From a virus: DNA of 64,000 nucleotides. This document shows, one piece after another, positions 40,284 to 56,579 of this stretch. The translations under genes and the position numbers were made by a program. The notes under the pieces are model-generated. The model was not told the DNA's origin and ran no database searches. It was given only the letters and a program-made list of their open reading frames with translations. Position 1 is the stretch's first letter. The number at the start of each line of letters is the position of its first letter. The DNA lies in IMG/VR virus record IMGVR_UViG_3300028025_002046, positions 1-64,000 of that record; one strand, 5' to 3'.

Positions 40284-40293
40284 AGGAAAACAA

Positions 40294-40449: not shown

Positions 40450-40531
40450 GGCGGTACCCAAAAATAACGGTTTGGTAACGAAACGTGTTATGTGTCGTTA
40501 TAATGTCTGCCTATGTGCTTATAATTGACCT

Positions 40532-40681
40532 ATGAACGAAATCAAATGTGTAGTATGTGAAGACAAAGCAACCGAACTAGCCCTTGATGTTTGGGGAGCA
40601 GACTTAGAGATTTGCGACAAGCAAGAGTGCTATGACGAAATTGCTGATGGTGATTGGATACACACAAAGCCACTGGCATAA
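40532..40681 (+). CDS. 49-aa Cys-containing acidic protein
   Basis: leaderless 6 nt after TATAAT; CVVC..CDKQEC. Confidence 0.7.
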   Translation: MNEIKCVVCEDKATELALDVWGADLEICDKQECYDEIADGDWIHTKPLA

Positions 40682-40728
40682 TGTCTGCCCTATCAACTAA
40701 ACTAATAACATCTAACAAAGGAAACTAA

Positions 40729-40851
40729 ATGGCTAACTACTCAGTATCAAGATTCAACGAACTAATGCGTATCGCTAAGAGTGATGAGTATATGAGTGAG
40801 AGTGAGTTCAATGAACTAATGGCTATCTTCAAGATTCGTGGGTATCACTAA
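40729..40851 (+). CDS. 40-aa protein, paralog of 42806-42928
   Basis: MANYSVSRFNELMRIAKSDEYMSESEFNEL..KIRGYH. Confidence 0.8.
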   Translation: MANYSVSRFNELMRIAKSDEYMSESEFNELMAIFKIRGYH

Positions 40852-40913
40852 TGGTTGAATGGATCATCTACCTATTTGGCTTATGGCTAATAGCGGTTAT
40901 TCTTACTCAGTAA
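40851..40913 (+). CDS. 20-aa hydrophobic micropeptide
   Basis: TAATG coupling; MVEWIIYLFGLWLIAVILTQ. Confidence 0.55.
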   Translation: MVEWIIYLFGLWLIAVILTQ

Positions 40914-41050
40914 ACTAATCGGCGTGTCGTCTTGACAAATGCCCCCGAAAGGGGGTACCAAAAATAACGGTTTGATAACGACACTACGATATGACTTGCA
41001 TAATGTCTGACCCTGTGCTTATAATTGAGGTATAAAGAAAGAGGTTCCAA

Positions 41051-41332
41051 ATGACTTACTACAACTACCGCCAAAACAACTCGGGTGGCTCGTTCTCTGA
41101 CCCTGCCCTAAATGTTGTCGTCAAGGCAAATAGCCCTGCTGAGGCAGATGCGATTGCCATCACTAAGGGTATCTACTTTGACCCTGAGTTTGAGATTGAT
41201 TGCGATTGCTGTGGTAACCGCTGGTATCCTGCTACTGAATACACTGCCTCAGATACCATTCCTGCTGTATCAGATTGGGATTGCCAATGGGCTATCTCTG
41301 ATGGTGTGTTTGCTCAGATAGTTGTTGAGTAG
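41051..41332 (+). CDS. hypothetical phage protein (QNNSGG / DC.CCG.RW motifs)
   Basis: motifs recurrent in phage early genes; SD GAGG. Confidence 0.8.
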   Translation: MTYYNYRQNNSGGSFSDPALNVVVKANSPAEADAIAITKGIYFDPEFEIDCDCCGNRWYPATEYTASDTIPAVSDWDCQWAISDGVFAQIVVE

Positions 41333-41493
41333 GGGAAACCCTACTTGATACACACCTAAAAATGTGGGTACCCAAAAATAACGGTTTGATAACGAAGCTT
41401 AATAAATGTGTAAAATACGGCGTGTCGCTACCTAAAATGTCATACCCCCTTGCTATGCTTACAGGGTAAGCAAAAAAGAAAAGGAAATTGAAA

Positions 41494-41631
41494 ATGAAAA
41501 ACGAACTAAAGAAGTGGCAACTATTCGAATACACCATTGACGGAGATGCTGTCGTTTCGTCAATCTACTACCTAGACATTGCGGAATTCCTAAAGGAACA
41601 CCCTGAAGCAGTGCCAACTAACCACCGCTAA
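41494..41631 (+). CDS. 45-aa protein, paralog of 40294-40419
   Basis: YTIDGDAV..EFLKEHPEAVPTN. Confidence 0.75.
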   Translation: MKNELKKWQLFEYTIDGDAVVSSIYYLDIAEFLKEHPEAVPTNHR

Positions 41632-41649
41632 AAGAAAAGGAAATTGAAA

Positions 41650-41748
41650 TTGATAACACTAACTTTTGAAACTTGGGAAGAATTTGATAACGCTCTAAGC
41701 GGTATCACTAGCCTAGTAATCGCTACTAATCCAGACCCTACTAAATAG
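41650..41748 (+). CDS. 32-aa peptide
   Basis: TTG start after AAAAGGAAA; ITLTFETWEEFDNAL. Confidence 0.5.
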   Translation: MITLTFETWEEFDNALSGITSLVIATNPDPTK

Positions 41749-41780
41749 TTATCCACAACTACTTATCCACCTGTGGATAA
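41749..41780. promoter_or_regulatory. DnaA box cluster
   Basis: TTATCCACA 41749, TTATCCACC 41763, TGTGGATAA 41772. Confidence 0.7.
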
Positions 41781-41909
41781 CTTTGGTACCCAAAAATAAC
41801 GTTTTGGTAACAAACTTAAAAAGACCTACGATTTACGGCGTGTCGTTCCCTAAAATGTCCTACCCCTATGCTATGCTGAAAGCATAAAGAAAAAGAAATG
41901 AGAAATCAA

Positions 41910-42044
41910 ATGGCAGTAACAATCAAACTAACCCCTAGCGAATCAAACCTATTCAACTGCGAAATCTGTGGCAACCCTGCCAACAAGATGAAACTAATGA
42001 ACAGCGGTTACTGCCAATACACTTGTGCCAGATGTGCCAAGTAA
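41910..42044 (+). CDS. 44-aa zinc-ribbon protein, paralog of 43427-43555
   Basis: CEIC..CARC. Confidence 0.7.
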   Translation: MAVTIKLTPSESNLFNCEICGNPANKMKLMNSGYCQYTCARCAK

Positions 42045-42089
42045 AATGTCATAGCCTACTGATAAACTAAATATATAAACAAAAGGAAA

Positions 42090-42135
42090 TGAGCCTTAGC
42101 AAATAAACGAGTAATCGGTGAGCCTAAGCAAATAA
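42090..42135 (+). repeat. tandem TGAGCCTNAGCAAATAA element, copy 1
   Basis: near-identical 46-bp element at 43809-43854. Confidence 0.8.
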
Positions 42136-42167
42136 GTTCCACTAACAAAAAAAGAAATGAGAAATAA

Positions 42168-42431
42168 ATGAACATCAACGAAATTCGCGAACAAGGTATC
42201 GGTTCAAACTTCAAGGTTATCAACCAAGCAGACGGATACCAAAAGAATAACCGCCTATGGTTTGGTGAGTGTGTTGAGTGTGGTGAGAGAGTAACCAATT
42301 CAAACCTAAAAGGTGTTTGGGTTCACACAATAATCTTAGAGCGTGACGGCTTGTCTACTAGGTCTAGAGATGTTGATTACTGCCCTACCGCTCAAATTCA
42401 GGGTAACCTAGTTCAAGAGATTTCAATCTAG
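42168..42431 (+). CDS. hypothetical protein with CxxC
   Basis: ORF track; promoter at 42045. Confidence 0.7.
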   Translation: MNINEIREQGIGSNFKVINQADGYQKNNRLWFGECVECGERVTNSNLKGVWVHTIILERDGLSTRSRDVDYCPTAQIQGNLVQEISI

Positions 42432-42493
42432 GCAAAAACTTTTTGCGACACGCCAGGGATAACTTGACAAATCGCAAAAATTTTGGTACCCGA

Positions 42494-42509
42494 TCGAACA
42501 CTTGTTCGA
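42494..42509. promoter_or_regulatory. LexA (SOS) box, actinobacterial type
   Basis: TCGAAC-ACTT-GTTCGA, perfect match. Confidence 0.75.
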
Positions 42510-42608
42510 ATGTAACGATTAGGTTACGGAAGCTCAGAAACACCCCTAAATCTAACTAAAATGTCAGACCCCCCTGTTACAATGAATACATAAACGAAAG
42601 GCAAACTA

Positions 42609-42758
42609 ATGAAAAGAATTCACACAGTAATGGCGTTCCTACCAAACAAGAAGAAGGTTATTGACCTAACCTATGACGCAGACAATTTTACAGTAGAGCA
42701 AGCAATCAAGTCTGTGGAAGACAAGGGCTTGACAGTAATTTCGGTTTACACAAACTAA
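42609..42758 (+). CDS. 49-aa hypothetical protein
   Basis: SD GAAAGG; promoter at 42560. Confidence 0.7.
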   Translation: MKRIHTVMAFLPNKKKVIDLTYDADNFTVEQAIKSVEDKGLTVISVYTN

Positions 42759-42805
42759 AATGTCTGACCCTACTGCTAAAATGAAATCAAACGAAAGGAA
42801 GTCAA

Positions 42806-42928
42806 ATGGCTAACTACAATGTTGCGAGATACAACGAACTAATGAGAATTGCTAAGAGCAACGAATTTATGTCTGAAAGCGAATTCAACGAATTGGTTGG
42901 AATAATGAAAATTAGGGGATACCACTAA
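42806..42928 (+). CDS. 40-aa protein, paralog of 40729-40851
   Basis: MANYNVARYNELMRIAKSNEFMSESEFNEL..KIRGYH. Confidence 0.8.
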   Translation: MANYNVARYNELMRIAKSNEFMSESEFNELVGIMKIRGYH

Positions 42929-42929
42929 A

Positions 42930-42989
42930 ATGGAATTCCTATCCCTAGCCCTAATCGCTTTCGCAATCTATCTATTTATCAATCAGTAA
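42930..42989 (+). CDS. 19-aa hydrophobic micropeptide
   Basis: MEFLSLALIAFAIYLFINQ, same position as 40851 peptide. Confidence 0.55.
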   Translation: MEFLSLALIAFAIYLFINQ

Positions 42990-42999
42990 AGGAAATCAA

Positions 43000-43200
43000 A
43001 TGTCTGTAACTATCAAGCGTAATGTAATTCTATCGGTTCTAGCAACCATCTTCTTCTTCGTGGCTAAGTCTGGTCTTGATGAAATGGCTAAGTCTGGTCT
43101 TGACGGCTTGGGAATGTTCCCTTTCCTAATCGGTGGCTTTGGCTTTCTAGGCTTCTCTATCGGTCTGGTTATTCGTCTATGGGGGAATGAGAAAGAGTAG
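43000..43200 (+). CDS. two-TM membrane protein with in-frame 24-bp duplication
   Basis: TGGCTAAGTCTGGTCTTGA at 43061 and 43085. Confidence 0.7.
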   Translation: MSVTIKRNVILSVLATIFFFVAKSGLDEMAKSGLDGLGMFPFLIGGFGFLGFSIGLVIRLWGNEKE

Positions 43201-43203
43201 GAG

Positions 43204-43312
43204 TTATCCACACCCTACCCCAAGTTATCCACAGGGGGTACCCCCCGAACACTTGTTCGAATTTACGTAGCTTACGTAGCTCCCCCCCAGCTTTTTTCGA
43301 ACAAAAGATCGA
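43204..43312. promoter_or_regulatory. DnaA box pair plus two LexA-like boxes
   Basis: TTATCCACA 43204, 43225; CCGAAC-ACTT-GTTCGA 43245; TCGAAC-AAAA-GATCGA 43297. Confidence 0.7.
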
Positions 43313-43426
43313 ATGTAACGAATTGGTAACAAAATGCGACACACCCCCTAAAAGCCTATAAAAACTAACTAAAATGTCAGACCCCCCTGCTATGCTTACT
43401 ATGTAAGCAAAAGAAATGAGAAATAA

Positions 43427-43555
43427 ATGAAATACCTACTAAGCCCAGCCGAATCAGCAAAGTTTCCTTGCGACCTTTGTGGCAAGCCAGCAACTAACGC
43501 CTATGTAATGCGTTCAGGATTCGTTCGTTACAATTGTAATCGCTGTGTGTCGTAA
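43427..43555 (+). CDS. 42-aa zinc-ribbon protein, paralog of 41910-42044
   Basis: CDLC..CNRC. Confidence 0.7.
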   Translation: MKYLLSPAESAKFPCDLCGKPATNAYVMRSGFVRYNCNRCVS

Positions 43556-43616
43556 CGCTAAAATGTCTTACCCTAATGCTAAAATAAATTATCAAACAAA
43601 AAGAAAGAGCAACTAA

Positions 43617-43796
43617 ATGCCAAAGCCAAGAATGACCAAAGCCGAAAAAGCAATCGTGAAAGCGGTGAACGCAATTGTGTTCGCAAATCCAGAAATCCGT
43701 AATGGCGGAAAATTCCTAGACAGAGCCGCTTTCCAAAAGTTGCCAGACCAGACCCAGAAAATCTATCTGGATTTGGTAATCAACAAAACATTCTAA
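43617..43796 (+). CDS. 59-aa basic protein
   Basis: promoter at 43562. Confidence 0.65.
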   Translation: MPKPRMTKAEKAIVKAVNAIVFANPEIRNGGKFLDRAAFQKLPDQTQKIYLDLVINKTF

Positions 43797-43808
43797 AACC
43801 AAATGGCG

Positions 43809-43854
43809 TGAGCCTGAGCAAATAAACGAGTAATCGGTGAGCCTCAGCAAATAA
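43809..43854 (+). repeat. tandem TGAGCCTNAGCAAATAA element, copy 2
   Basis: matches 42090-42135. Confidence 0.8.
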
Positions 43855-43875
43855 AGCCCTAACGAAAGGAAAACT

Positions 43876-44037
43876 ATGACAGCCAAAGAAAAAATCGAAT
43901 TGCTTACTCGCAAGCACGAAAGAGGTTTGGTTATCTCTAACCTCTACTCTGCCATTCTCGCCTGTGATGAGGATGCCGATGAATGTGATGTTTGTCTAGG
44001 CTTGAAATACGCAATTCAGCGGATAGAGAAAATGTAG
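43876..44037 (+). CDS. 53-aa hypothetical protein
   Basis: SD GAAAGGAAA. Confidence 0.65.
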   Translation: MTAKEKIELLTRKHERGLVISNLYSAILACDEDADECDVCLGLKYAIQRIEKM

Positions 44038-44067
44038 TTATCCACAGGTAACCAAAAGTTATCCACA
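44038..44067 (+). promoter_or_regulatory. DnaA box pair
   Basis: TTATCCACA at 44038 and 44059. Confidence 0.75.
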
Positions 44068-44161
44068 GGGCGTACCCACCCCCCTAGATCATTTACGTAA
44101 CCAATTAAATACCCCCCAGATTATTTCCCATAATGTCCGACCCCCTTGTTATACTTATCGT

Positions 44162-44305
44162 ATGAACGATAAGACGACTTGCTACCACTGCCAGAAGAAC
44201 AACACCTACGCTTTGGCTACCCTAAAAAATGGCAATGTTATGCGTGTGTGTAACCTATGCTCATTTTACCTTGACGACCTAATCACCAACCTAGTAATTC
44301 TCTAA
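44162..44305 (+). CDS. 47-aa zinc-ribbon protein
   Basis: leaderless; CYHC..CNLC. Confidence 0.65.
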   Translation: MNDKTTCYHCQKNNTYALATLKNGNVMRVCNLCSFYLDDLITNLVIL

Positions 44306-44320
44306 GAAAGGAAAATCCCT

Positions 44321-44383
44321 ATGGATGACGACTATGTAGAATATGATGAGTGCTATGAAGAGCCAGGTGACTTCTTTTCATAG
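44321..44383 (+). CDS. 20-aa acidic peptide
   Basis: SD GAAAGGAAA; MDDDYVEYDECYEEPGDFFS. Confidence 0.5.
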   Translation: MDDDYVEYDECYEEPGDFFS

Positions 44384-44469
44384 CACCACCCTTCGGGGGG
44401 TACCCCCAGCTCCGCTGGGTCGTTTACGTTAAGAAGTATAATGTCTGACCCCCCTGCTATACTTGAGGT

Positions 44470-44661
44470 ATGAATTCACGAAAGGCTAACTCTATGACCA
44501 CTCCTAACCCTAACCCTAATGTCGTTGGCTATGTCTGCGTTTACTGCCAGAAACTCTACCTGCCAGAAGAAACCATCTGCCTAGATTGTAACGAGTATGA
44601 CGGAATGGTGGCTCTAACCAAGAACATCTTGGCTATGTTTGCTGACCCTGTTGTTTCATAA
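44470..44661 (+). CDS. zinc-ribbon protein
   Basis: CVYC..C..CNEYDGM. Confidence 0.7.
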   Translation: MNSRKANSMTTPNPNPNVVGYVCVYCQKLYLPEETICLDCNEYDGMVALTKNILAMFADPVVS

Positions 44662-44716
44662 TGTCTGTGGCTACTGCTAAACTTACCCTATAAACCCTAT
44701 CGAAAGGCTATCCCCT

Positions 44717-44812
44717 ATGTGCGATTGCGAAGACCGTCCTTGCTGTGGCTGCTACTCTATGGCTGACCTATACTCCAACTCTGGAGACCCCTATGACCCT
44801 AACAACTGGTAG
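44717..44812 (+). CDS. 31-aa CEDxPCCGC peptide
   Basis: SD GAAAGG; MCDCEDRPCCGC. Confidence 0.65.
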   Translation: MCDCEDRPCCGCYSMADLYSNSGDPYDPNNW

Positions 44813-44917
44813 GTAACTACCCCCCCTGGGGGGTACCCCCAGATCTAGCTCTTTTACGTTAAGAACTATAATGTCCTACCCCCAATGTATAATTGTATTA
44901 TCAACGAAAGGTAAACT

Positions 44918-45184
44918 ATGTTAGAAATCGCATTTGGAATGAAGCAGGTTCAGAAGAACTCAACCGAGAACCCTATGGTCGCTATGATGGCTCTGGAACT
45001 GGAAGACACTCGCAACAACCTAAGCGAAGATGAGTTTTTAGAGTTTCTTGCTAAGTTTGCTCTCTCTATCTCTGCTATGGCTATCTCTCAAACTGTTCAG
45101 TTGTGTCTTGATGAAACCACGCAAGATGAGTTGGAGAAAACCATTTTGGAACTAATGGAAATGGAAGATTTAGGTAAGGAGTAA
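44918..45184 (+). CDS. acidic helical hypothetical protein
   Basis: ORF track, SD, promoter 44870. Confidence 0.75.
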   Translation: MLEIAFGMKQVQKNSTENPMVAMMALELEDTRNNLSEDEFLEFLAKFALSISAMAISQTVQLCLDETTQDELEKTILELMEMEDLGKE

Positions 45185-45323
45185 TCTCCTACCCCCGAAA
45201 GGGGGTACGCCCAGCTCCGCAGGGCTGGTTTACGTAGCTAATTAAAAAGCTCCCAAACCTTTTTGCTAAAATGTCAGACCCCCTTGCTATAATTGTATTA
45301 TCAACCAAAAGAAATGAGAAATA

Positions 45324-45524
45324 ATGAACGACACTCCGCTAGTAATCCGCTCTAATGAAGTTGTAAACAACCTACGAGATGAGAAACTAAACTACGACAC
45401 CTCCTACGCAAAAGCGTTTGGTGCTTGCTGGGGAGTAATGACCGACGAGCAACGACTAATCGTTTTGGAATACTCGCAACGCCAAGCAATAATTATCAAC
45501 ACACTAGGAGAAGAAATAAACTAA
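45324..45524 (+). CDS. hypothetical protein
   Basis: ORF track, promoter 45270. Confidence 0.7.
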   Translation: MNDTPLVIRSNEVVNNLRDEKLNYDTSYAKAFGACWGVMTDEQRLIVLEYSQRQAIIINTLGEEIN

Positions 45525-45703
45525 TGATGACACGCAAAGACTATGTAGCAACCGCAGAAATTCTAAATTCTTATGTTCACAATTTAGACGCTCCAATTTT
45601 TGATTGCCTAGTTCAAGATTTTGTGGCTATGTTCGCAGAAGATAACGACCGCTTTCTAATTGATAAGTTTGAAGACGCTTGTTGGGGAACGGCTAGGGAG
45701 TAA
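45524..45703 (+). CDS. hypothetical protein (MTRKDY..F..DN.RF..KF..AC family)
   Basis: motif common in phage early genes; SD AGGAG. Confidence 0.75.
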   Translation: MMTRKDYVATAEILNSYVHNLDAPIFDCLVQDFVAMFAEDNDRFLIDKFEDACWGTARE

Positions 45704-45812
45704 TCCCTGCTCCCCTGGGGGTACGCCCCCACCCCTAGCTCGTTTACGTAACGCATTAAATTTACCCTAGATTTATTCCTAAAATGTCTTACCCCTGATG
45801 TATAATAAAACT

Positions 45813-45983
45813 ATGAAGAAAAAGAAACCACCACTAGGCAAGGTCGCCAACGCTACTCGCAAGGCTCACGCCAAGGAATTGTTCCAGAGCCTTTTACTCA
45901 ACAAGCACTTAGTCGTTACCCCTGCCAACCGCAAGGGTTCACGACAGAGCAACAACCAAAAAGCAATTAGGGAGAGTTACTAA
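45813..45983 (+). CDS. basic 56-aa protein
   Basis: leaderless; RKGSR..KAI.E motif. Confidence 0.7.
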   Translation: MKKKKPPLGKVANATRKAHAKELFQSLLLNKHLVVTPANRKGSRQSNNQKAIRESY

Positions 45984-46239
45984 TGGATGAACTATTTATT
46001 GTAATCAACGACAAGGGATACGCTGTTGAGATGTGTCTTACCGAGCAAGAAGCGTTAGAGTGGATTGCTAAATTTGGTAACAAAAACTATTCTATCGATT
46101 TGGATGTGGTGTGCTAATGAAAGTTTATGTAGTTATTGAGACTTGTTGTATGCACTTTTGTGGAGTATACAAGGACAAGGCTGAGGCTGATGCCTATGCC
46201 GAAGAGAATGACTATTCCGTCTATGAGTATGACCTTTAG
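45983..46239 (+). CDS. two small coupled ORFs (about 44 and 40 aa)
   Basis: MDELFIVINDKG.. then MKVYVVIETCC..GVY; TAATG overlaps. Confidence 0.55.
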
Positions 46240-46288
46240 TGTCATACCCTCACGCTATAATTGAAACACCCTAACGAAAGAGAAACTA

Positions 46289-46756
46289 ATGAAAGCAATT
46301 ATCGAATCTAACTGTGTTTGTGAACCAGACGAAGAAAACCCTGAAAGCCTAAATTGCTACGGTGACTGCTGGGAATGGCAGAAAGAAGACGTTCAGTGGA
46401 TTATCGGTGAATGGGCAACTAAGAATGAAGTAGCCGAAGGACAGCCAATTCTAATTACTGGCACAAACATGAACTGGAACCATGTTTCAGGCTGGGCAAC
46501 CGCAACACCAGAAACCATTCTCGATAAACTAACCTTGAACGGTGATTTTAGTTTAGAGTTTGACTTTGACCCTGATGAAAATACTTTCAATGTTGTTCGT
46601 CGTTCTCACGATGAAATGGGAGCGTTGTTTACTTTTGTAATCATGGAGCCATGCAACCAGTGTGGAGTAGGAATTCCACGAGAGATTTATAACGAAGAAC
46701 TAGGCATGTGTCTTGAATGTTCAAATGCTTACTTCAACCATGAGGATGAAGAATGA
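46289..46756 (+). CDS. acidic Cys-containing hypothetical protein
   Basis: ORF track; promoter 46238. Confidence 0.75.
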   Translation: MKAIIESNCVCEPDEENPESLNCYGDCWEWQKEDVQWIIGEWATKNEVAEGQPILITGTNMNWNHVSGWATATPETILDKLTLNGDFSLEFDFDPDENTFNVVRRSHDEMGALFTFVIMEPCNQCGVGIPREIYNEELGMCLECSNAYFNHEDEE

Positions 46757-46812
46757 TAGAGTTTGGAGTTATCCTAATAGCGATAGGTTTGGTTATCCTA
46801 CTGAATCAGTAG
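46753..46812 (+). CDS. 19-aa hydrophobic micropeptide
   Basis: ATGA overlap; MIEFGVILIAIGLVILLNQ. Confidence 0.5.
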   Translation: MIEFGVILIAIGLVILLNQ

Positions 46813-46912
46813 ATACCCCCCGAAAGGGGGTACGCCCTATCGATCAGCTGCTTTACGTAGCCATAATGTCAGACCCTAAATGTATAATGGTATTATCAAA
46901 GAAAAGGAAACT

Positions 46913-47632
46913 ATGTCACTCATTCGCTCTAAAGACCGTAAAGTTGCTAACCAAGTAAACAAGGCTGGCAGTCAGGCTTCAATGGCTAACACTTTTGGAT
47001 TACCTAGTGGCAAGGCTTTTTCCTGCCCTGGGGCTACCTCGGTTTGTGAGACTATTTGTTACGCTGGCAAACTTGAAAAGGTATTCAAGGGTGTTCGCAA
47101 TGTTTTGGTATCTAACTATGAGCAACTACTGGCAACCGATACTCTAGGCATGATTGCTTTGATTGACGAAATGATTCAAGACTTCAAGCAGGAATGTGAA
47201 AAGCGTAATGCCGATAAGTTATTCCGTATTCACTGGGACGGAGACTTCTTTAGCGAGGACTACACTAGAGCATGGAATTTTGTTATCCGCCTAAACCCTG
47301 ATGTTCAATTCTGGGCTTACACTCGTTCAGACTTTGCTGTTCCAATTCTAATTGACATTCCTAACCTAGCCCTATACTTCTCTGCTGATTCTGCTAACAA
47401 GACTTTGGCATGGGAACTAAAGCGTAAGTATGGTGTGAAACTTGCTTACCTCGCCAAAGACTTTGCTACAGGCAAGAGTGACTTCAATGAGCAACAGGAA
47501 AAGTCTGCTGTTCCCTGCCCTGAAAACAACAAGAAGATTCCAATGATTAGCGAAAAGGGCAGTGCTTGCGTGATGTGTTCGCAGTGTGTGTTTGCTCGCA
47601 ATGACATTCTGTTTAGTGCTACTAAAAAGTAG
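46913..47632 (+). CDS. GP88-family protein (radical-SAM-like, phage gene 88)
   Basis: FGLP..SCPGAT..C..ICYA, FRIHWDGDFF, FWAYTR, C-terminal CP..C..C..C. Confidence 0.8.
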   Translation: MSLIRSKDRKVANQVNKAGSQASMANTFGLPSGKAFSCPGATSVCETICYAGKLEKVFKGVRNVLVSNYEQLLATDTLGMIALIDEMIQDFKQECEKRNADKLFRIHWDGDFFSEDYTRAWNFVIRLNPDVQFWAYTRSDFAVPILIDIPNLALYFSADSANKTLAWELKRKYGVKLAYLAKDFATGKSDFNEQQEKSAVPCPENNKKIPMISEKGSACVMCSQCVFARNDILFSATKK

Positions 47633-47774
47633 TGCTAGGCAGGGTACCCCCCACCCCATAGCTGCTTTACGTTACGATGCTAAAATGTCCTACCCCCCCT
47701 GTATAATATATACATAAGCAGGAAACGCAGCCCCCAAACAGAAAAAAATAATTGAACAAGTTTGAAAAATGTGC

Positions 47775-47803
47775 TTGACAATCTCCTGCTTATGCCTTAT
47801 AAT
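47775..47803 (+). promoter_or_regulatory. consensus sigmaA promoter
   Basis: TTGACA-17-TATAAT. Confidence 0.8.
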
Positions 47804-47852
47804 AGATACATAAGCAAAAATGTTTATGTAAACCGAATAGAAAGAAGCAAAA

Positions 47853-47999
47853 ATGACCGAAGTTACTGTTGGCTCACAGTTCGCAACCCAGAAGTCTGGC
47901 GTTGTTGGTATTGTTCAGGAAGTTGTAATCAACAAGAACGGCTCTCAGCGTGTTCGCCTTGATGTAAACGGAACTGACCGCTGGACTACTGTAAAGTAA
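47853..47999 (+). CDS. 48-aa beta (SH3-like) protein
   Basis: MTEVTVGSQFATQKSGVVGIVQEV..RWTTVK. Confidence 0.75.
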   Translation: MTEVTVGSQFATQKSGVVGIVQEVVINKNGSQRVRLDVNGTDRWTTVK

Positions 48000-48005
48000 T
48001 TCACC

Positions 48006-48600: not shown

Positions 48601-48605
48601 GATAA

Positions 48606-48762: not shown

Positions 48763-48869
48763 CTTGCTACCCCAGGAGCTGGGGGTACCCCCCCTACCCA
48801 CTAAGCCCTTTACGTTATAATGTCTTACCCCCCTGTTATAATTGACCTATCACAAAGAAAAGGAAAACT

Positions 48870-49508
48870 ATGAAACACGAAACAACCCTTTACACCTACA
48901 CCAACAAAGCCTATGTTACTGAGTATGGCGATTTCGCAGCCGAAGGCTCTTGCCTTACTTTTGATTCTTCACTACTCTCTAACTCACAATGGCAGTTAGT
49001 AGATGAGTTGCCAGATTCACAAAAGTTTGAGTATGTCTTGGCTATCCTTGACGGAGAAGAAGATGTTATTCGTGAGATTGAAAGCGAGAATAAATAATGT
49101 TTGATGATGTAATCGCTATGGACATAGTGGAACAACTAACCGAAGAACAACTAGACCAACTAATCGCAATACTAGAAGGAGCAGGTTACTAATGTTTATT
49201 CCAAACTTAGCAATACTACTAGACGAAATCAAACAGGCAGAGAAATCTTCCAAACTTGAAGGTGTTGTGTCTTACGCTAGTGGCTATGAAGATGGCTTGC
49301 GTATGGCATTAGACATTTTGGAAGGAAGGGTAGAGTAATGGAAAAGATTACTGTTAGTCTTAGGTTTGAATACTACCCTGAAGAAGACCACGCAGAATTG
49401 TTTGAAGACATGACTGAAGATGAAATGATTCGCTATGCTAAAGAAATGGCTTGTGAAGATATAGTCAGTGGAGATGTTTGGGAATGGCTAGAAGTTTCGG
49501 TAGAGTAA
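48870..49508 (+). CDS. operon of four small acidic ORFs
   Basis: 48870-49097 in ORF track, then MFDDVIAM.., MFIPNLAI.., MEKITVSL.., closely coupled. Confidence 0.65.
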
Positions 49509-49558
49509 AATGTCAGACCCTACCAGTATAATTAGACTATCAACGAAAGGAAACACTA

Positions 49559-50050
49559 ATGGGAACTCGTAATCTAACTAAGGTAATTGACAAAGACGGA
49601 GTAACTAAGGTTGCTCAATACGGACAATGGGACGGCTACCCTAGCGGACAGGGTATCAACGCTCTTCTACACGCCTACAATCACAGGCAGATTGAAAGCA
49701 AGTTGCCTAGACTACACTTTCTAACCGACAGCGAGATTGAGAACATCAACTCACTACTATCGGCAAGCGGACAGCCAATTAGCGAAGTCTATCCTACCCT
49801 ATCTCGTGATACCTGTGCGGACATTCTAGGCTATGTCGCTTGGTCTAATGATGTATTCCTAGTGGATAGTAGCGACTTTGAGAATGACGAATTGTTTTGT
49901 GAAGCAGTTTACACGCTAGACTTTCAAAAGAAAAAGTTTATCTCTACTTATGGTGGACACACCTTAGAGTTTGAGTTGGACGACCTACCAGAACCGAAAG
50001 AGTTTTTGGCAGATTGGGCGTATGAACTAAATCCTGGTGTGGTGGGCTAA
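49559..50050 (+). CDS. hypothetical phage protein (MGTR..QWDGYP family)
   Basis: N-terminal MGTR and Y.QWDGYP.G.G motif. Confidence 0.8.
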   Translation: MGTRNLTKVIDKDGVTKVAQYGQWDGYPSGQGINALLHAYNHRQIESKLPRLHFLTDSEIENINSLLSASGQPISEVYPTLSRDTCADILGYVAWSNDVFLVDSSDFENDELFCEAVYTLDFQKKKFISTYGGHTLEFELDDLPEPKEFLADWAYELNPGVVG

Positions 50051-50147
50051 CGCTCACCCCTAGGGGGTACCGCCCAAGATCCAAGCTGTTTACGACTATA
50101 ATGTCAGACCCCCAATGTATAATGGAACTATCAACGAAAGGGAAACA

Positions 50148-50309
50148 ATGAGCGAGTATGTAGCAGTAGACATTTATGACCGTATGGAGGCTAACGCCAA
50201 CGACCTTGGTGGTAGCGTTGAGGAAGACCTAGCAGAGATTCTTGCGTCTGGTGACCTAAGTGCTTTTGAAGACTACTTTGGCGACACAGACCCATTTGAA
50301 TTCCTATAA
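50148..50309 (+). CDS. small acidic protein
   Basis: SD GAAAGGG; promoter 50100. Confidence 0.7.
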   Translation: MSEYVAVDIYDRMEANANDLGGSVEEDLAEILASGDLSAFEDYFGDTDPFEFL

Positions 50310-50355
50310 TGTCCTACCCCACCTGTATAATAGAAACATCAACGAAAGGTAAAGA

Positions 50356-50835
50356 ATGAACGAGAATGAAAACACAGATAACATTGGCAATTTTGGTGAG
50401 TATAATGCTGTTCCTGTTGAACCAATAGTCCACCCTTCCCTAGCAAAATTGTATGACGAGATTGCTGACCTAAAAGAAAAGTTGGTTCACTCAACTACCA
50501 TTGCGAGCGAAGCACAAACTCGTTTGCGTGAACAGCAGAGCGAGTATCGTGAGAACGAGGGCAAACTTCAAGACATTCTAATTGAAGCACTTGGAGATGA
50601 AGAAATTGACAAAGATGTAGCAGACAAGATTGCCGAACTCTATGGTCTTGACCTACGCAAGGTATTCTCTATCAACATTCAGGTTGTTGTAAATGTTGAA
50701 GTGTCTGCTCCTGTTGGAACTGACCCTAGCGACATTGTAGATAATGTTGGCTTTGGCTATGGCGGTATCACCTACTCTGGTATTGGTGATTTGGAAAGCG
50801 ACCATTGGGAAATTGACGACTGGGAAGAAGTGTAG
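50356..50835 (+). CDS. acidic coiled-coil hypothetical protein
   Basis: ORF track; promoter 50308. Confidence 0.8.
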   Translation: MNENENTDNIGNFGEYNAVPVEPIVHPSLAKLYDEIADLKEKLVHSTTIASEAQTRLREQQSEYRENEGKLQDILIEALGDEEIDKDVADKIAELYGLDLRKVFSINIQVVVNVEVSAPVGTDPSDIVDNVGFGYGGITYSGIGDLESDHWEIDDWEEV

Positions 50836-50974
50836 GGTAAACCTTTCCCCTACCAGTGCTGGGTATCACTATAAACTACCCCCACATGGGCGTACCCCTC
50901 CCTGCCCCAAGATCCATTTACGATAGCTTTAAGAAATCTCCAGAAAATTCCCCAAAACTTTTTGCTAAATAGTA

Positions 50975-51003
50975 TTGACAAACAGAGTGTTTGCCTGTAT
51001 AAT
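50975..51003 (+). promoter_or_regulatory. consensus sigmaA promoter
   Basis: TTGACA-17-TATAAT. Confidence 0.8.
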
Positions 51004-51045
51004 TAGACTATACACAAATCAACCACTAACAGAAAGAGAACCCCT

Positions 51046-52062
51046 ATGGCTCACGAACTAGAACAAGGCGAGAATGGCGAAGTTGCTTTTGCTTCGCTAC
51101 GCCAACCTGCTTGGCACAATCTAGGCACTGTCTTTGAAGAGCAGGTCAATACAGCAGAGATGCTGAAACTTGCTCACCTTGATAATTGGAATGTTCGTCT
51201 TGAAGATGTAACCATTCCAGAAAACTTTGAGAGCGACAAAAACTATTCGTTCGTTACTCGCACTAACCCTTTTGATAACACCAAGAATGATGTTCTCGGC
51301 GTTGTCGGTGAGCGTTATGTTCCCCTACAAAACGAAGACCTATTTTCGTTTGGCGACAACCTGCTAGACGGCGGTGGTCGTTGGGAAACCGCTGGCTCAA
51401 TCAAGGGTGGTCGTCAGGTGTTCGGCTCTATCGCTTTGGCTGATAGCATTACCCTAGACCCTAATGGTCGTGCTGATAAGATTGATAACTATCTTCTAAT
51501 CAACACTTCTCACGACGGAAGCATTGCTATTCAGGCAAGTATCACGCCTGTTCGTGTTGTATGTGCTAACACTCTCAACCTTGCTCTATCTTCATTCAAG
51601 GGCAAGAAAGCAGCGAAGCAGACTTTCAAAATCCGCCACACTTCAACTGCCGAAGGTAAAATCGCAGTTGCTCGTGAAGCACTAGGTCTTGCCAAGACTT
51701 ACCTAGACGAGTTTTCTCTTATGGCTAACGCTATGATTGAAAAGGAAATCACTAAGGCTGACTTTGATAAGATTGTCGCTCTTGCTTACCCTGCTCCTGA
51801 AAAAGACGCTAAGGGTTCATTCAAGAAATACGACAGCAAGATTGACCTGCTAAACGACATTTATGTTGGGCAATTCAATGACACCATTTCTGGAACTGCT
51901 TGGGGAGCATACAACGCTCTAACCGAACGCCTAGACTGGTATCGCTCTGCTCGTGGTGGAAGCAACGAGAGTATCTACGCTTCTGCTTCTGGCTTTGACC
52001 CTGTAATCAACGCAGAGAAGAACCGCTTGATGAAGATTGTTCAACAGGTTGTAATGGCGTAA
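51046..52062 (+). CDS. DUF932 / TIGR03299-family phage-plasmid protein
   Basis: PAWH.LG, Y.PLQN, ETAGS..GGR, SHDGS, TPVRVVCANTL, IRHT, GTAWGAYNA.TE. Confidence 0.9.
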   Translation: MAHELEQGENGEVAFASLRQPAWHNLGTVFEEQVNTAEMLKLAHLDNWNVRLEDVTIPENFESDKNYSFVTRTNPFDNTKNDVLGVVGERYVPLQNEDLFSFGDNLLDGGGRWETAGSIKGGRQVFGSIALADSITLDPNGRADKIDNYLLINTSHDGSIAIQASITPVRVVCANTLNLALSSFKGKKAAKQTFKIRHTSTAEGKIAVAREALGLAKTYLDEFSLMANAMIEKEITKADFDKIVALAYPAPEKDAKGSFKKYDSKIDLLNDIYVGQFNDTISGTAWGAYNALTERLDWYRSARGGSNESIYASASGFDPVINAEKNRLMKIVQQVVMA

Positions 52063-52209
52063 GCCATTCTCCCTTGCTCCTGGCAGTAAAATGTCAGGGG
52101 TATAGGGGGTACCCAGCTATCGATCTTATTTACGACACACCTTACGATATCCCTATAATGTCATACCCTACCCTTATAATAGATACATAACCCGAAGAAA
52201 GGAAAAGCA

Positions 52210-52395
52210 ATGCCTAAATACCAAATAGAAATGATGATTGAATTCTCTGGTGAGATTGAAGCAGACAACGAAGAACACGCAGAACAACTTGCTTGGACGA
52301 GTTGGGGAGATACAATGGATAGCCCTATCGTTTATGACGGTGTTTATTCAATTGAAGTAGAAGCAGTAGACGAAGAAGAAGACGAGGAAGACTAA
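52210..52395 (+). CDS. small acidic protein (EA.N.E.A family)
   Basis: ORF track; promoter 52157. Confidence 0.75.
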   Translation: MPKYQIEMMIEFSGEIEADNEEHAEQLAWTSWGDTMDSPIVYDGVYSIEVEAVDEEEDEED

Positions 52396-52640
52396 TGGGA
52401 GCAAGAATAAATCCAGACGACATTCAGTTTCGTAAAGACGCTGACTACTATATGGACCCTATCGGTCTAGCAGTCATCCTTATTGAAGAGATGATTGACT
52501 GGGGTATTGAACGAGACCGAATGATTGTTGAGAAACTACCAGAAGAACACATTTGGTATTTTGATGGTCTACTCCGTCGAACAGAAACTATCCTAGACAG
52601 ACTAGGTGTAGAGAACATTCCAGTAGTAGGTGATTGCTAA
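52395..52640 (+). CDS. hypothetical protein
   Basis: TAATG coupling. Confidence 0.7.
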   Translation: MGARINPDDIQFRKDADYYMDPIGLAVILIEEMIDWGIERDRMIVEKLPEEHIWYFDGLLRRTETILDRLGVENIPVVGDC

Positions 52641-52739
52641 TGAGTGATTGTATTGAGAATGATAACGGACGTTGTATGTTCTGTGGTGCTATAATGTCTG
52701 ACCCTACCGCTATAATTGAAGCCTAACCAAAGGAGAACA

Positions 52740-52913
52740 ATGTCTAAAACCTATCAAGTAGAATACAATGCTGTCTATTGGGTAACTGCCAATAGCGAAG
52801 AAGAAGCAATTGAGTTGGCTATTGAAGAACACGAACAAATGCCTAATGGCGATTGGGAAGCAATGATAGACCCTTATGACAGCGACAACTTCAACACACT
52901 AGGAGAGAAATGA
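52740..52913 (+). CDS. small acidic protein (EA.N.E.A family)
   Basis: SD AAGGAG; promoter 52693. Confidence 0.75.
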   Translation: MSKTYQVEYNAVYWVTANSEEEAIELAIEEHEQMPNGDWEAMIDPYDSDNFNTLGEK

Positions 52914-53833
52914 CACAACTAGAAAGCCTACTAGAAGAAAAGGCAGAACTGCTTCAAGACTTTGAAGATGTAAAGAATATGCTAAGTGATTCAGGACACG
53001 ACCTATTCCTAAACAGGATAGATATGCTTGACAGTATGATTGAGATTGAGTTGAACAATGCCTAATTACATTATTGTTGCTACTAGAAAACAAGAGTTTG
53101 AGATTGATGCTGTTGATTTTCCAGATGAACAGGCTGCCCTTGCTTCTTTGGATAATTGGATTGCTGATGACTTTGAAGCATTTGCTATTCAGGCAACTTG
53201 GGATTTTGAGGTGTTAGCAAATGACTAGACCTGCTTGTGCTTGGTGTGGTATGGATGAAATGGATGAGTATGCCTCATTCAACGGTAAAGATATTTGTAT
53301 AGATTGTGCAGGAGAATAATGAGTTATAGCACTTGTAGAGAATGTCTTGAAGACTACCTAGATGAAGACCTAAATGATTTTATGGTTTGTTATGTATGTG
53401 ACCACGAATGTGACGAAACCTGTAATAATCCCTGTAATGTAAAGGAAGCAAATGAGTAAAAAGATAAACATCAAATTTGAATTGAACTATGATTTGGAAG
53501 ACCTACGCTTTATGGTGGGGGAAGACTTTCCAGAAGAACAATTTCGTGAACGAGTAATTGAATATGCTTTCCACGACCTACACGAAATGTTGCGTAGCGA
53601 TAGCGTAGATGCTTGGGCAGATGTGGAAGAAATCAATGAGTAACGCTATGGGAGAAATCACAGTAGGCGAAGCGTATGAAGAAGGTTTCTATGATGCTAG
53701 GGCAAGTGTATTAGAACTAATAGATGAGTGGTATACGGAGTATAAATCAAGTTTAGACTTGCTACCCTTGCCAGTTGCGATTGGCTTTTTGAAACAGGCT
53801 ATCTTAGATGCCGATGTTTTAGATATGGAGTAA
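52910..53833 (+). CDS. run of about six very small acidic or Cys-rich ORFs
   Basis: overlapping stop/start codons with SD sites; includes 53452-53643 and the ORF ending at 53833. Confidence 0.55.
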
Positions 53834-54007
53834 CATCCACCCGAAAGGGTGGGTACCCCCAGTTAACATAATATAGTTAAACTAAATAATTAATTACGAA
53901 AGCGGATTAAGATCCCCGAAATCTTTTCCCAGAAATTTAGCTTTTGCTATTGACAAATGAGGCGTTATGCCTTATACTTGTAATACAACCCAAAAGAAAG
54001 AGAACAA

Positions 54008-54519
54008 TGCATACCCTACAATACATTGCAATTCAATCAGAAGATAAAGAGAGTGCAGCCAACACAGTAAAGAACCTACTAGAAGAAGAACTAAATCCTG
54101 GTTCGTCTTGGTATGACTGGTTCGTTGTAGGTGGAGGTCGCTTTGCTCCTAATCCAGAAGACCAGTATGATGACACCCATGAGACTGTTATCTCCTATGC
54201 AGATACCCCTGACATTTTTGATGAGAAAGTTGGAGACTGTATGAAATCCAAAGGTCGTGAGTATCAGGAACTCTATACAGATTACAAACTAAATAAAGAA
54301 GAAATAGAGAAGACCTTTGAGGCTTGGAATGGCAACATGGAATTCTCTATGGCTCTCTATCCACTACGGAAGATGTTGGACATTGTTCAAGGACATTGGG
54401 ATTACACATCTCGTGTATACGACATTACCAATTGGTCTACCAATACCCACCACATGAACAGAAGTCTAGCAGACGGAAACAAAAATTGGTTCCTTGTGCC
54501 TGTTGACTTTCACTTCTAA
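54008..54519 (+). CDS. hypothetical phage protein (WYDW..VGGR..VDFH family)
   Basis: motifs; TTGACA-17-TATACT at 53950; start approximate (MHTLQY). Confidence 0.75.
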
Positions 54520-54558
54520 ACCTGCTATACTTATACTCCCACAAACAAAGGAAACGAA

Positions 54559-54759
54559 ATGGCTACATTTGAAGTCACTGTGACTTATCACTTCGACACA
54601 ACTTACGAAGTCGAAGCAGACAACTATGAACACGCAGAATACAAAGCCCTAGAAGAAGCAACCGAATGGAAGCCTTACTCATCTGAAAAGGGATACACCG
54701 AAGACTGGTATCAGGTAGAAGTTGAGCCAGCCCTGATTAGCGGAGAGATTGAAGACTAA
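54559..54759 (+). CDS. small acidic protein (EA.N.E.A family)
   Basis: TTGACT-17-TATACT at 54503; SD. Confidence 0.75.
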   Translation: MATFEVTVTYHFDTTYEVEADNYEHAEYKALEEATEWKPYSSEKGYTEDWYQVEVEPALISGEIED

Positions 54760-55184
54760 TGATATTAGTAGACAATTGGGTAGACACCTACAAGCCAATC
54801 AAGAATGAGAATAACGACTGGGGTGGAACCTACTCTGCCTTTGAAACCTATGGAACAGAACTAGACTTCGTATGGTCTAAGCCTAACAATCTTGTTTGGA
54901 CTGAGATTGACGGTGACGAGGGTAGTTACATTATCGCTGGCAAGCACATTGTAAATCGCCTACAATACTTTGTATGCGAAGTGCCTTGGGAAGATGAGAA
55001 CCTTATGGTCGCTATCTCTGTTGAGCAAGAGTGTGAACTCTGTGGCGGAACAGGCGAGCAACCACTTGGAGAAGATGAAGTAGAAGACTGCGACACCTGT
55101 GGTGGTCGTGGCTACTGGCAGGTCTATCCAGACACTATGGAAGAACTAGAAGCACTAATCGGGAAAGAGAGAGCAAATGGCTAA
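54759..55184 (+). CDS. acidic protein with DnaJ-type CxxCxGxG zinc finger
   Basis: CELCGGTG..CDTCGGRG. Confidence 0.75.
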   Translation: MILVDNWVDTYKPIKNENNDWGGTYSAFETYGTELDFVWSKPNNLVWTEIDGDEGSYIIAGKHIVNRLQYFVCEVPWEDENLMVAISVEQECELCGGTGEQPLGEDEVEDCDTCGGRGYWQVYPDTMEELEALIGKERANG

Positions 55185-55868
55185 ATACGTCAAGCACCTA
55201 AGCAACGAAGAACTAATGGCAAGAATAGCAGATGACCTAGTTAGTATGCATAATGATACTGGTATTCATCTTGGATACTGGGAGACGGCTATGGAACTTG
55301 TAGAACGTTTTTACCACGTAAATGTTGAAGTAATCGTAGGAGAGAAGAAGAACTATGAAAGCGTTTGAGAACCTTGCCTTTGACAGGGAGAACTTTGAGA
55401 GTTGGGTAGATGAAAGTCTACAGACCAGGCTTACTGATGAGCAGTGGGAGCGTGTCAAGGATGAACTTGACGGACGTGTAGAGAACTACTTGGACCAGAT
55501 GATTTACGACGTTGTGCTAGAGTTTAGGGAGGGAGCCTTCGATGAATAAGGACTGGGACCTAAACATCTTCTTCAAAGAAGTATGGGATGAGAACGTAGA
55601 AGAGTATGTGCTTGAAGATGTGTTGACTATCAATCCTGTAGTCTACATGTATGACAGTAATGGTTCTAATAATCATTATTCAGATATCATCTGGACCACT
55701 ACCTTTGCAGAAGCACGTTACCTACGGAGCCAGTATCCAGAGAAAGAATACGGCTACGACTGGACTGACACCATTAGCAACTTCATAGAGATTGCACCAC
55801 CTAGGCTGAAGTCTCTAGCCATGGCATTACCCAGTGCCTACGATTACAAGATAGACTTGGTGGGTTGA
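55177..55868 (+). CDS. three coupled small hypothetical proteins
   Basis: 55177-55368, 55355-55549, 55542-55868. Confidence 0.7.
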
Positions 55869-55883
55869 GACTACTCCTCATCA

Positions 55884-55956
55884 GGATACGCTAAGGGGTT
55901 GGCGTATTCGGTGGTAGGTTGAGAGACGTTATTTCCTTTCACTCTTGACCTACCAC
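55884..55956 (+). ncRNA. double-hairpin RNA with anti-SD loop
   Basis: 11-bp and 15-bp stems with G-U pairs favouring + strand; loop ACGTTATTTCCTTTCA. Confidence 0.5.
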
Positions 55957-56001
55957 CACAATTTTGGTATAATAGAAGTTACAACTAAATACGGAGAACA
56001 A

Positions 56002-56196
56002 ATGACAAACGACGAAAACAAAGTAGCAGACAAGATTGGAAAACTTGTATCAGACCTAACATTAGACATTGAGCAGGTAGGACTTTACATTGGACGACAA
56101 CCGAATGTAATTCTAAATAGATTAGAAATCATTACCGAGACAGCACGAGAAGAAAAGGAAGACCTACATTTGACCATTGACAATGATTGGCGGTAG
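56002..56196 (+). CDS. hypothetical protein
   Basis: SD GGAG; TTGACC-17-TATAAT at 55945. Confidence 0.7.
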   Translation: MTNDENKVADKIGKLVSDLTLDIEQVGLYIGRQPNVILNRLEIITETAREEKEDLHLTIDNDWR

Positions 56197-56211
56197 GTGT
56201 ATAATAGAACT

Positions 56212-56502
56212 ATGAACGAAACCACTATAGATAACAAATGTAACATCCTAGCAGAACTATGGATGGACTACCGAGATGATGTAAACTTTGATGACTTCAT
56301 CAACTACGCTGACTTAGGTTTGCCATTGGCATACGCTATCAGTAATGAGATAGTCAAACTTACTCCACAGGCAGAGAAGTTTATCACGGAGGCTTTTGAT
56401 TTGCTAGTAGCAAGTATGGGTCTAGAAGATACAGGCTTTGAAACTCTGGATGACATTTTCATGGAAGGCGATTTAGAAGCTTTCGAAGATCCAGAAGAGT
56501 AA
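56212..56502 (+). CDS. acidic hypothetical protein
   Basis: leaderless after TTGACA-17-TATAAT at 56177; DLGLPLAY motif. Confidence 0.75.
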   Translation: MNETTIDNKCNILAELWMDYRDDVNFDDFINYADLGLPLAYAISNEIVKLTPQAEKFITEAFDLLVASMGLEDTGFETLDDIFMEGDLEAFEDPEE

Positions 56503-56579
56503 CCAGTGGATCCCCTGCAAAGGGGAGACCTGGGGTACCACATCTTATTCAATTTGTCAATAGCCAATTTATCCAATAT

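Follow-up and report, generated by a model that had tools for sequence, protein, structure and literature searches.

What marks the boundaries between the many small early genes of an uncultured phage, and why does a single tetranucleotide recur at those boundaries? The question is raised by the first 64 kb (64,000 nucleotides, hereafter the window) of the 94.6 kb virus contig IMGVR_UViG_3300028025_002046 from IMG/VR, for which completeness is estimated at 88%. A plus-strand block of the window, at approximately 39-57.3 kb, comprises about 50 small open reading frames (ORFs), and the tetranucleotide GTAC lies between them as the core of a composite junction. With a probability of roughly 0.5, this module is a boundary cassette of a freshwater actinophage comparable to the promoter-early/stem-loop (PeSL) motifs of T4-type phages, in which a short seam around GTAC and a downstream promoter box would provide short homologies for the exchange of gene units.

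Between positions 40454 and 56538, GTAC occurs 19 times and, according to our gene calls, every copy is intergenic. The 12.4 kb of coding DNA within 40000-56600 contain none, against approximately 41 expected, and the 4.2 kb of intergenic DNA contain 19; by chance, all 19 copies would land in the intergenic 25% with a probability of about 5e-12. The core is GGTAC at 17 of the 19 junctions and GGTACC at 14. Across the 94.6 kb contig there are 15 copies of GGTACC, 14 of which are these junction sites, and 8 of the 19 cores form perfect palindromes of at least 8 bp.

The elements on either side are equally regular. On the 5' side, G:C hairpins capped by GAAA or UUCG adjoin the GTAC at 40955, 44400, 45205, 46830 and 53853, DnaA-box pairs or a triplet stop 4-5 nt before it at 40454, 41786, 43238 and 44072, and most of the remaining junctions have other predicted hairpins whose 3' G-run adjoins it. 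On the 3' side, TTACG follows after 21-26 nt at 12 junctions (43238-52109), ATAAC-N6-RTAAC is found at +10/+21 in the four leftmost ones, and the junction at 42486 has TAACG at +27; at 53853 and 56535 TTACG lies farther off, at +41 and +54. A TGTC-box promoter with the exact geometry ATGTC-N4-N8-TAnnnT is located 34-136 nt 3' of GTAC at 16 junctions, and the three others have sites resembling the sigma-70 consensus instead. Within 40-52.7 kb there are 26 such TGTC-box promoters, and the plus strand of the entire genome has 28. The gap between junctions widens from 0.33-0.83 kb to 1.7-2.7 kb. An earlier note on this DNA had described one intergenic GTAC per junction, preceded by a hairpin or DnaA boxes, followed in 17 of 19 cases by TTACG or TAAC(G) and then by a promoter, with a spacing that grows from left to right; the counts bear out this description. 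The junctions are as follows.

Junction 1, 40420..40525, plus strand: DnaA boxes at 40420 and 40441; core GGTACCC at 40453-40459; ATAAC and GTAAC at 40464 and 40475; TGTC-box promoter at 40503-40525.
Junction 2, 40942..41025, plus strand: CCCCC-GAAA-GGGGG hairpin; core GGGGGTACC at 40951-40959; RTAAC pair at 40964 and 40975; promoter at 41003-41025. Directly upstream are GGCGTGTCG and TTGACA boxes.
Junction 3, 41366..41459, plus strand: core GGGTACCC at 41366-41373; RTAAC pair at 41378 and 41389; GGCGTGTCG box; promoter at 41437-41459.
Junction 4, 41749..41877, plus strand: DnaA boxes at 41749, 41763 and 41773 (inverted); core GGTACCC at 41785-41791; RTAAC pair at 41796 and 41807; TTACG at 41833; promoter at 41855-41877; natural joints at 41785 and 41789 in strain-variant contigs.
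Junction 5, 42485..42583, plus strand: core GGTACCC at 42485-42491; CGAACA-N2-TGTTCG dyad; GTAAC at 42512; TTACG at 42524; promoter at 42561-42583.
Junction 6, 43204..43396, plus strand: DnaA boxes at 43204 and 43225; core GGGGGTACCCCCC at 43234-43246; CGAACA dyad; TTACG at 43263 and 43272; promoter at 43374-43396.
Junction 7, 44038..44155, plus strand: DnaA boxes at 44038 and 44059; core GTACCC at 44072-44077; TTACG at 44093; promoter at 44133-44155; natural joint at 44069.
Junction 8, 44385..44463, plus strand: CCC-TTCG-GGG hairpin; core GGGGGGTACCCCC at 44395-44407; small hairpin with AGCT; TTACG at 44424; promoter at 44441-44463.
Junction 9, 44820..44893, plus strand: C-run/G-run; core GGGGGGTACCCCC at 44828-44840; AGATCT/AGCT; TTACG at 44854; promoter at 44871-44893.
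Junction 10, 45191..45293, plus strand: CCCCC-GAAA-GGGGG hairpin; core GGGGGTAC(GCCC) at 45201-45208; TTACG at 45230; promoter at 45271-45293.
Junction 11, 45700..45806, plus strand: hairpin; core GGGGGTAC(GCCCCC) at 45717-45724; TTACGTAA at 45744; promoter at 45784-45806.
Junction 12, 46815..46888, plus strand: CCCCC-GAAA-GGGG hairpin; core GGGGGTAC(GCCC) at 46826-46833; ATCGAT/CAGCTG; TTACG at 46853; promoter at 46866-46888.
Junction 13, 47617..47707, plus strand, 3' of the GP88-family gene: conserved GCTAC-TAAAA-GTAG hairpin; core GGGTACCCCCC at 47642-47652; TTACG at 47667 and 47672; promoter at 47685-47707.
Junction 14, 48765..48842, plus strand: CCCCAG-GAG-CTGGGG hairpin; core GGGGGTACCCCCCC at 48781-48794; TTACG at 48810; promoter at 48820-48842.
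Junction 15, 50045..50123, plus strand: hairpin; core GGGGGTACC at 50063-50071; AGCT; TTACG at 50090; promoter at 50101-50123.
Junction 16, 50892..51003, plus strand: core GTACCCC at 50892-50898; TTACG at 50918; a perfect TTGACA-17-TATAAT at 50975-51003 replaces the TGTC-box promoter.
Junction 17, 52080..52180, plus strand, 3' of the DUF932 gene: long hairpin; core GGGGGTACCC at 52105-52114; AGCT/ATCGAT; TTACG at 52130 and 52142; promoter at 52158-52180.
Junction 18, 53836..53978, plus strand: CCACCC-GAAA-GGGTGG hairpin; core GGGTACCCCC at 53851-53860; ATTACGAA at 53892; sigma-70-like site at 53950-53978.
Junction 19, 56510..56593, plus strand: CCCCTGC-AAA-GGGGAG hairpin; core GGGGTACC at 56532-56539; ATTACGA at 56587. 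The non-coding ATTACGA...TTTTCCCC repeat array starts here, and a natural diverged segment ends at 56537.

Two alternative descriptions of the module were tried and rejected. The segment from core to TTACG is not a general cluster of 6-bp palindromes, the apparent enrichment (17 vs 6.3) coming nearly entirely from GGTACC and TACGTA, and neither TTTACG nor the core can serve as the -35 and -10 hexamers of an ordinary promoter, the spacings being incompatible.

Relatives were collected through a search with the GP88-family protein, which yielded 31 IMG/VR loci, 18 of them forming a clade with a GC content near 0.4. In this clade the same architecture surrounds different centres: GCGC in L014-17, L019, L021-24 and L027, where all GCGC of those loci stand at junctions; GCCGAC or its complement GTCGGC in L011-13; and GGCCGG/CCGGCC in L020, L025 and L026. 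At the orthologous junction 3' of the GP88 gene (junction 13), relatives carry GCGC, GGCCGG..CCGGCC or CCGG, and at that 3' of the DUF932 gene (junction 17), GCCGAC is found in L011 and GCGC in L016 and L019. In whole genomes, 15 of the 18 GCGC of G003 and 20 of the 28 of G002 lie at junctions, as do 15 of the 17 GCCGAC/GTCGGC of the complete genome G001 at its early junctions, the 17 copies being divided into 9 forward and 8 reverse. Finally, X6, a near-identical strain from another sample (>90% identity), has the GTGC-centred GGGGTGCCCC at two junctions and GTAC at a third.

Across relatives, the core keeps its position and its G/C-rich flanks, and both the RTAAC/GTTAC boxes and TTACG are retained. 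TTACG occurs within 70 nt of 90 of the relatives' 168 cores against a background of 6%, most commonly at 20-34 nt, and RTAAC/GTTAC pairs stand 3' of 47 of the 168 against 2%; the downstream operator ATAACGTTTTGGTAAC is identical among this genome, L013 and L015 despite their differing cores. Core flanks range overall from G/C runs to T/A runs, the latter in the L014 group, and in L014, L015 and L027 the core was found, by eye, 0-2 nt 3' of a canonical hairpin with a T-run. Distant GP88-carrying phages with a GC content above 0.5 have no TGTC-box promoters, and the junction architecture is consequently regarded as specific to this clade. A loose pattern scan of IMG/VR for GTAC-type junctions returned single chance matches only, and no second GTAC-type genome. 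Because orthologous junctions have GCGC, GCCGAC/GTCGGC or GGCCGG, and a near-identical strain has GTGC, GTAC is not a conserved recognition site and appears to be a lineage-specific filler; the junction centre is neither conserved nor necessarily palindromic.

The units delimited by the junctions move. Homologous units are reordered between this genome and L011, L013, L018 and L019, and likewise among the GCGC-type relatives. When all pairs of nine GCGC-type loci were compared, the ends of homology blocks fell into two groups, one at gene ends and the other in a narrow peak at the core, with 32 ends at -20..+19 against none at +20..+69, and a secondary peak of block starts corresponds to it (34 at -40..+19). 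In explicit block pairs (L022 4731-5129 / L023 5952-6348; L014 2521-2885 / L015 7265-7609; L021 5147-5707 / L022 4579-5140), upstream homology reaches GCGCCCC and divergence lies beyond, as exemplified by DnaA boxes in L022 versus GTTAC boxes in L023.

The same is seen among natural strain variants, for which contigs from Logan, representing four runs in as many studies, were compared with 39500-57500. The contigs contain approximately 25 distinct joints. About five have one side at most 8 nt from GTAC (44069>41785, 40937>41789, 40935>41379, 56471>56537 and the X2 contig piece ending at 40952), and about 11 have one side in the TGTC-box promoter or 5' leader (40507>41435, 42071>45307, the duplication 45308>45270, 50111>50288, 43579>41891, 45263>48816, 46118>52701, 44683>43860, 42050>41891, 48034>48141 and 49343>49508); the others are within-gene replacements. 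The promoter box, which is the longest repeat, is hence the main joint and the seam the second. A further variant is the 133-nt deletion at 53317-53451, which removes most of a 54-aa ORF and is a common natural variant, since it recurs in contigs of X2, X6 and X9, from three runs and three studies.

These comparisons modify the remaining proposals of the earlier note. Its suspicion that breakpoints in relatives would be placed non-randomly with respect to the element agrees with the block ends, and its idea of a recombination site survives in that units shuffle and blocks end at the core, whereas GTAC as the specific site does not, most joints lying in the promoter box. Likewise, of the two motifs whose conservation it had put forward, TTACG is conserved and GTAC is not. 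Its self-contained cassette of promoter, gene and terminator retains the promoter-led unit and loses the terminator: canonical terminators, that is, G+C-rich hairpins followed directly by a T-run, number 13 in the region against 12.6 in shuffled sequences, with none at any junction, and the hairpins of this genome continue into GTACCCC without a T-run.

Taken together, the data fit a model in which GTAC would be the centre of a short G-rich/C-rich seam between consecutive early transcription units. Its 5' neighbour would be the 3' end of one unit, represented by a G:C hairpin or a DnaA-box pair, and its 3' neighbour the control region of the next, made up of RTAAC/GTTAC boxes, the TTACG box and a TGTC-box promoter of PafBC-like geometry. 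The seam itself may act as a transcriptional spacer, insulator or termination helper. Because the seam, of about 10 nt and GC-rich, and the promoter box, of about 23 nt, recur at all boundaries, general or short-homology recombination could delete, duplicate or exchange whole units at these two places, and unit recombination would be driven by homology. A RecA homologue is encoded by the phage. Recombination between seams would, in addition, homogenise the centre within one genome, a step for which the evidence is that neighbouring junctions are slightly more similar than random pairs (p=0.03), and the centre adopted by a lineage would follow from the tetranucleotides which that lineage had to purge.

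The closest precedent is provided by the PeSL composite motifs of T4-type phages (PMC2839356, PMC4122927), to which the module may be functionally analogous. In both cases a short 3' stem-loop and an early promoter form a composite that is repeated between numerous small genes whose function is unknown; here most junctions have a hairpin and four have DnaA boxes, followed by 16 TGTC-box and 3 sigma-70-like promoters, and 19 full junctions and 26 promoters are distributed over a plastic region of about 50 small ORFs. In both, too, the breakpoints of indels, replacements and reordering between related genomes fall within the motif and no dedicated recombinase is involved; here they are represented by the block ends, the explicit boundaries and the strain joints, the variants being short-read assemblies. 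The differences are that the present phage is a siphovirus of freshwater Actinobacteria, that its promoter is of the TGTC-box rather than the sigma-70 -35/-10 type, that its stem-loops lack the U-tract of a Rho-independent terminator, and that the module adds DnaA boxes, an RTAAC pair, TTACG and a GC-rich seam with a lineage-specific centre.

The tetranucleotide composition of the genome bears on the origin of the centre. GCGC is absent against 89 expected, and GGCC and CCGG are likewise at zero, whereas GTAC is depleted threefold genome-wide. GTAC differs from GCGC by two transitions, through a GTGC intermediate, and GCGC was probably the ancestral centre that GTAC replaced in this lineage; restriction avoidance may have determined the choice of GTAC. 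A wider purge is observed in early coding DNA (40000-56600), where AGCT occurs once against 59 expected, GATC once against 36 and TTAA not at all against 40. All 4-bp palindromes there amount to 225 against 534 in shuffles and the 6-mers to 42 against 132, while the interleaved intergenic DNA is nearly unpurged (6-mers, 55 vs 56) and the early-block junctions retain AGCT, GATC, GTAC and TTAA. CCGG, GGCC, GCGC and CGCG are absent from coding and intergenic early DNA alike, and the late genes show only mild palindrome depletion. The purge stops at gene ends.

Several points weigh against the PeSL-like interpretation. All 19 centres are identical, and mere loss of GCGC would predict a mixture of GTGC, GCAC and GTAC; the homogenisation detected is weak and may be insufficient for such uniformity. 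The retention of GTAC at the junctions, despite its genome-wide depletion and its absence from early coding DNA, speaks for direct selection. RecA-type recombination usually needs more than a seam of 10 nt, the short-read assemblies from which the joints come could have produced some of them as chimeras at repeats, and the lack of a canonical terminator at the junctions of this genome weakens the case for a function at the end of a unit.

The uniformity of the 19 centres despite the depletion of GTAC is what the PeSL-like interpretation accommodates least well, and for this reason other interpretations are kept in view. One, unlikely on balance, is that the centre is recognised by a trans-acting DNA-binding protein with a specificity that changes from lineage to lineage, sites and protein co-evolving. 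The candidates would be a repressor or roadblock of the stoperator kind or, from either phage or host, an enzyme akin to those of restriction-modification systems. Such a protein would account for a single 4-6-mer at all junctions of one genome that differs between lineages, for its palindromic form or, in G001, its presence in both orientations, both typical of double-stranded DNA recognition, for its purging from neighbouring coding DNA and for the constant 4-5 nt to the DnaA boxes. It would not readily explain why GTGC is tolerated at some junctions of a near-identical strain, why the core flanks vary from G/C runs to T/A runs, or why the adjacent RTAAC operator is conserved across lineages and the core is not. 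Moreover, no candidate binding protein was identified, no systematic repressor search having been made, and of the two methyltransferase families searched, C5 and N6/N4 (PF00145, PF01555), one of which would be the phage-borne partner of a restriction-modification system, no member was detected in any of five phage genomes, the complete G001 among them. Stoperators are asymmetric sites of 13-14 bp that are aligned with transcription, occur genome-wide and are bound by an identified immunity repressor. The present element resembles those of Cluster A mycobacteriophages (PMC9283540, PMC6550527) in that many copies of a short, lineage-dependent site are located in actinophage intergenic gaps, and it differs in its core of 4-10 bp, palindromic or in either orientation (the hexamer of G001 again), in its restriction to the early region and in belonging to an apparently lytic phage.

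Somewhat more doubtful is an action in RNA, where G-run, four-base loop and C-run would fold into a small hairpin that comes after, or competes with, the gene's own 3' hairpin and serves as part of a terminator, a pause signal or a 3'-end stabiliser, the centre being merely its loop. The G-run of most junctions is indeed also the 3' arm of the upstream hairpin, 8 of the 19 cores are the perfect palindromes noted above, the canonical hairpin and T-run directly 5' of the core in L014, L015 and L027 point in the same direction, and loop sequences are free to vary. Free variation, however, would not yield identical loops within one genome. In G001 half of the cores are reversed and lack the C-run, in L019 the palindrome does not extend past GCGC, in the L014 group the flanks are T/A, and a U-tract is missing in the present genome.

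Less probable again is that the centre is recognised by a lineage-specific enzyme of phage or host, such as a nickase, a methyltransferase or a restriction-like enzyme, that marks or cuts every early-gene boundary. If this were true, the site would have been purged from early coding DNA and kept at boundaries only, and each change of site from lineage to lineage (GCGC, GTAC, GCCGAC, GGCCGG) would go along with a change of enzyme.

Nicking or pausing and site-specific recombination are improbable even when taken together. In the first, which we regard as very unlikely, the core would be a site of specific nicking, cutting or injection pausing in virion DNA, as in T5, phiKMV-like and tf-like phages, where a short consensus also recurs at defined positions. 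The major T5 nick consensus, R/GCGCRGG (PMC3517423), contains the GCGC used by many relatives, and the stronger palindrome purge of the early region relative to late genes would suit the DNA that enters first. Known localized nick sites are nevertheless asymmetric and present on one strand only (PMC3517423), whereas the core is palindromic (GTAC, GCGC) or occurs in both orientations, and nicking at a palindrome would be expected on either strand; moreover, the centre varies even among near-identical strains, and contigs assemble across every junction, though this would also be possible with nicks. Least credible of all is an integron-like crossover site, since, for all the uniform short core at each boundary of small gene cassettes, reminiscent of attC arrays, and the breakpoints that fall exactly there, no tyrosine recombinase (PF00589), the family of IntI, and no serine recombinase was found in the five genomes, each cassette brings its own promoter, the R/L box structure of attC is missing from the boundary, most natural joints lie in the promoter box and recombinase binding would need longer and less variable flanking arms.

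The early control regions contain further repeated elements. Three perfect TTGACA-17-TATAAT sites (47775-47803, 50975-51003 and 56177-56205) stand among the TGTC-box promoters, which suggests that the early block may have two promoter classes. In the left part (40920-41460, 41830-41860, 42440-42470) there are repeated copies of the box GGCGTGTCG or of its complement CGACACGCC, often beside TTGACA, and in the relatives L016 and L019 two inverted copies surround the core and form a dyad of roughly 40 bp with GCGC at its centre. The 8-mers TTATCCAC/GTGGATAA have 13 of their 15 genome copies within 38-58 kb (38111-38131, 40420-44067, 57059-57079), paired at a spacing of 21 or 12 nt; in relatives they occur both 5' and 3' of the core, with their orientation mirrored. 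Beyond the last core, 56540-57330 is the non-coding zone in which the plus-strand early block meets minus-strand genes. It comprises seven ATTACGA copies, each with a TTTTCCCC-like run 12-20 nt 3' of it, and an inverted DnaA-box pair at 57059/57071; an origin or another class of promoters may be located here. A TTACGA...TCCCC pairing is also present in long junctions (43263, 45230, 50918, 53894).

As for the setting, the minus-strand genes of the window are those of a siphovirus (portal, protease, capsid, a 2838-aa tape measure at 6140-14656, which implies a very long tail, and collagen-like fibres), and the remainder of the contig encodes DNA polymerase III alpha, ribonucleotide reductase, RecA, DnaB and primase. 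Of the ten larger ORFs in the early block, only two belong to a Pfam family, GP88 and DUF932 respectively. The virus is, to judge by its WhiB-family gene, a phage of Actinobacteria: the gene, at 68118-68294 of the full contig and thus outside the window, is present in four of five clade genomes (this one and three of four relatives tested), and in a control of 14 genomes Corynebacterium alone matched. WhiB supports an actinobacterial host although the GC content is 42%. The absence of an integrase in the five genomes searched suggests a lytic phage. The sequence is present in runs from freshwater, aquatic and subsurface metagenomes. A megablast comparison of the region with 50,697 phage records gave no match; at the protein level the closest relatives are Streptomyces phages, with a capsid identity of 43%, and there is no near cultured relative.

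If the PeSL-like interpretation holds, the idea of mobile promoter/stem-loop cassettes as gene-shuffling seams would extend from T4-type phages to a large uncultured clade of freshwater actinophages, with population evidence for the shuffling in strain variants that differ by whole units. The clade also offers a natural experiment on what constrains such a seam: position, G/C-rich flanks and operator boxes are kept, and the central palindrome is replaced as a whole from one lineage to the next, matching the tetranucleotides that each lineage has purged, which bears on restriction avoidance versus regulatory constraint. For annotation, the module marks the limits of early transcription units in these phages.

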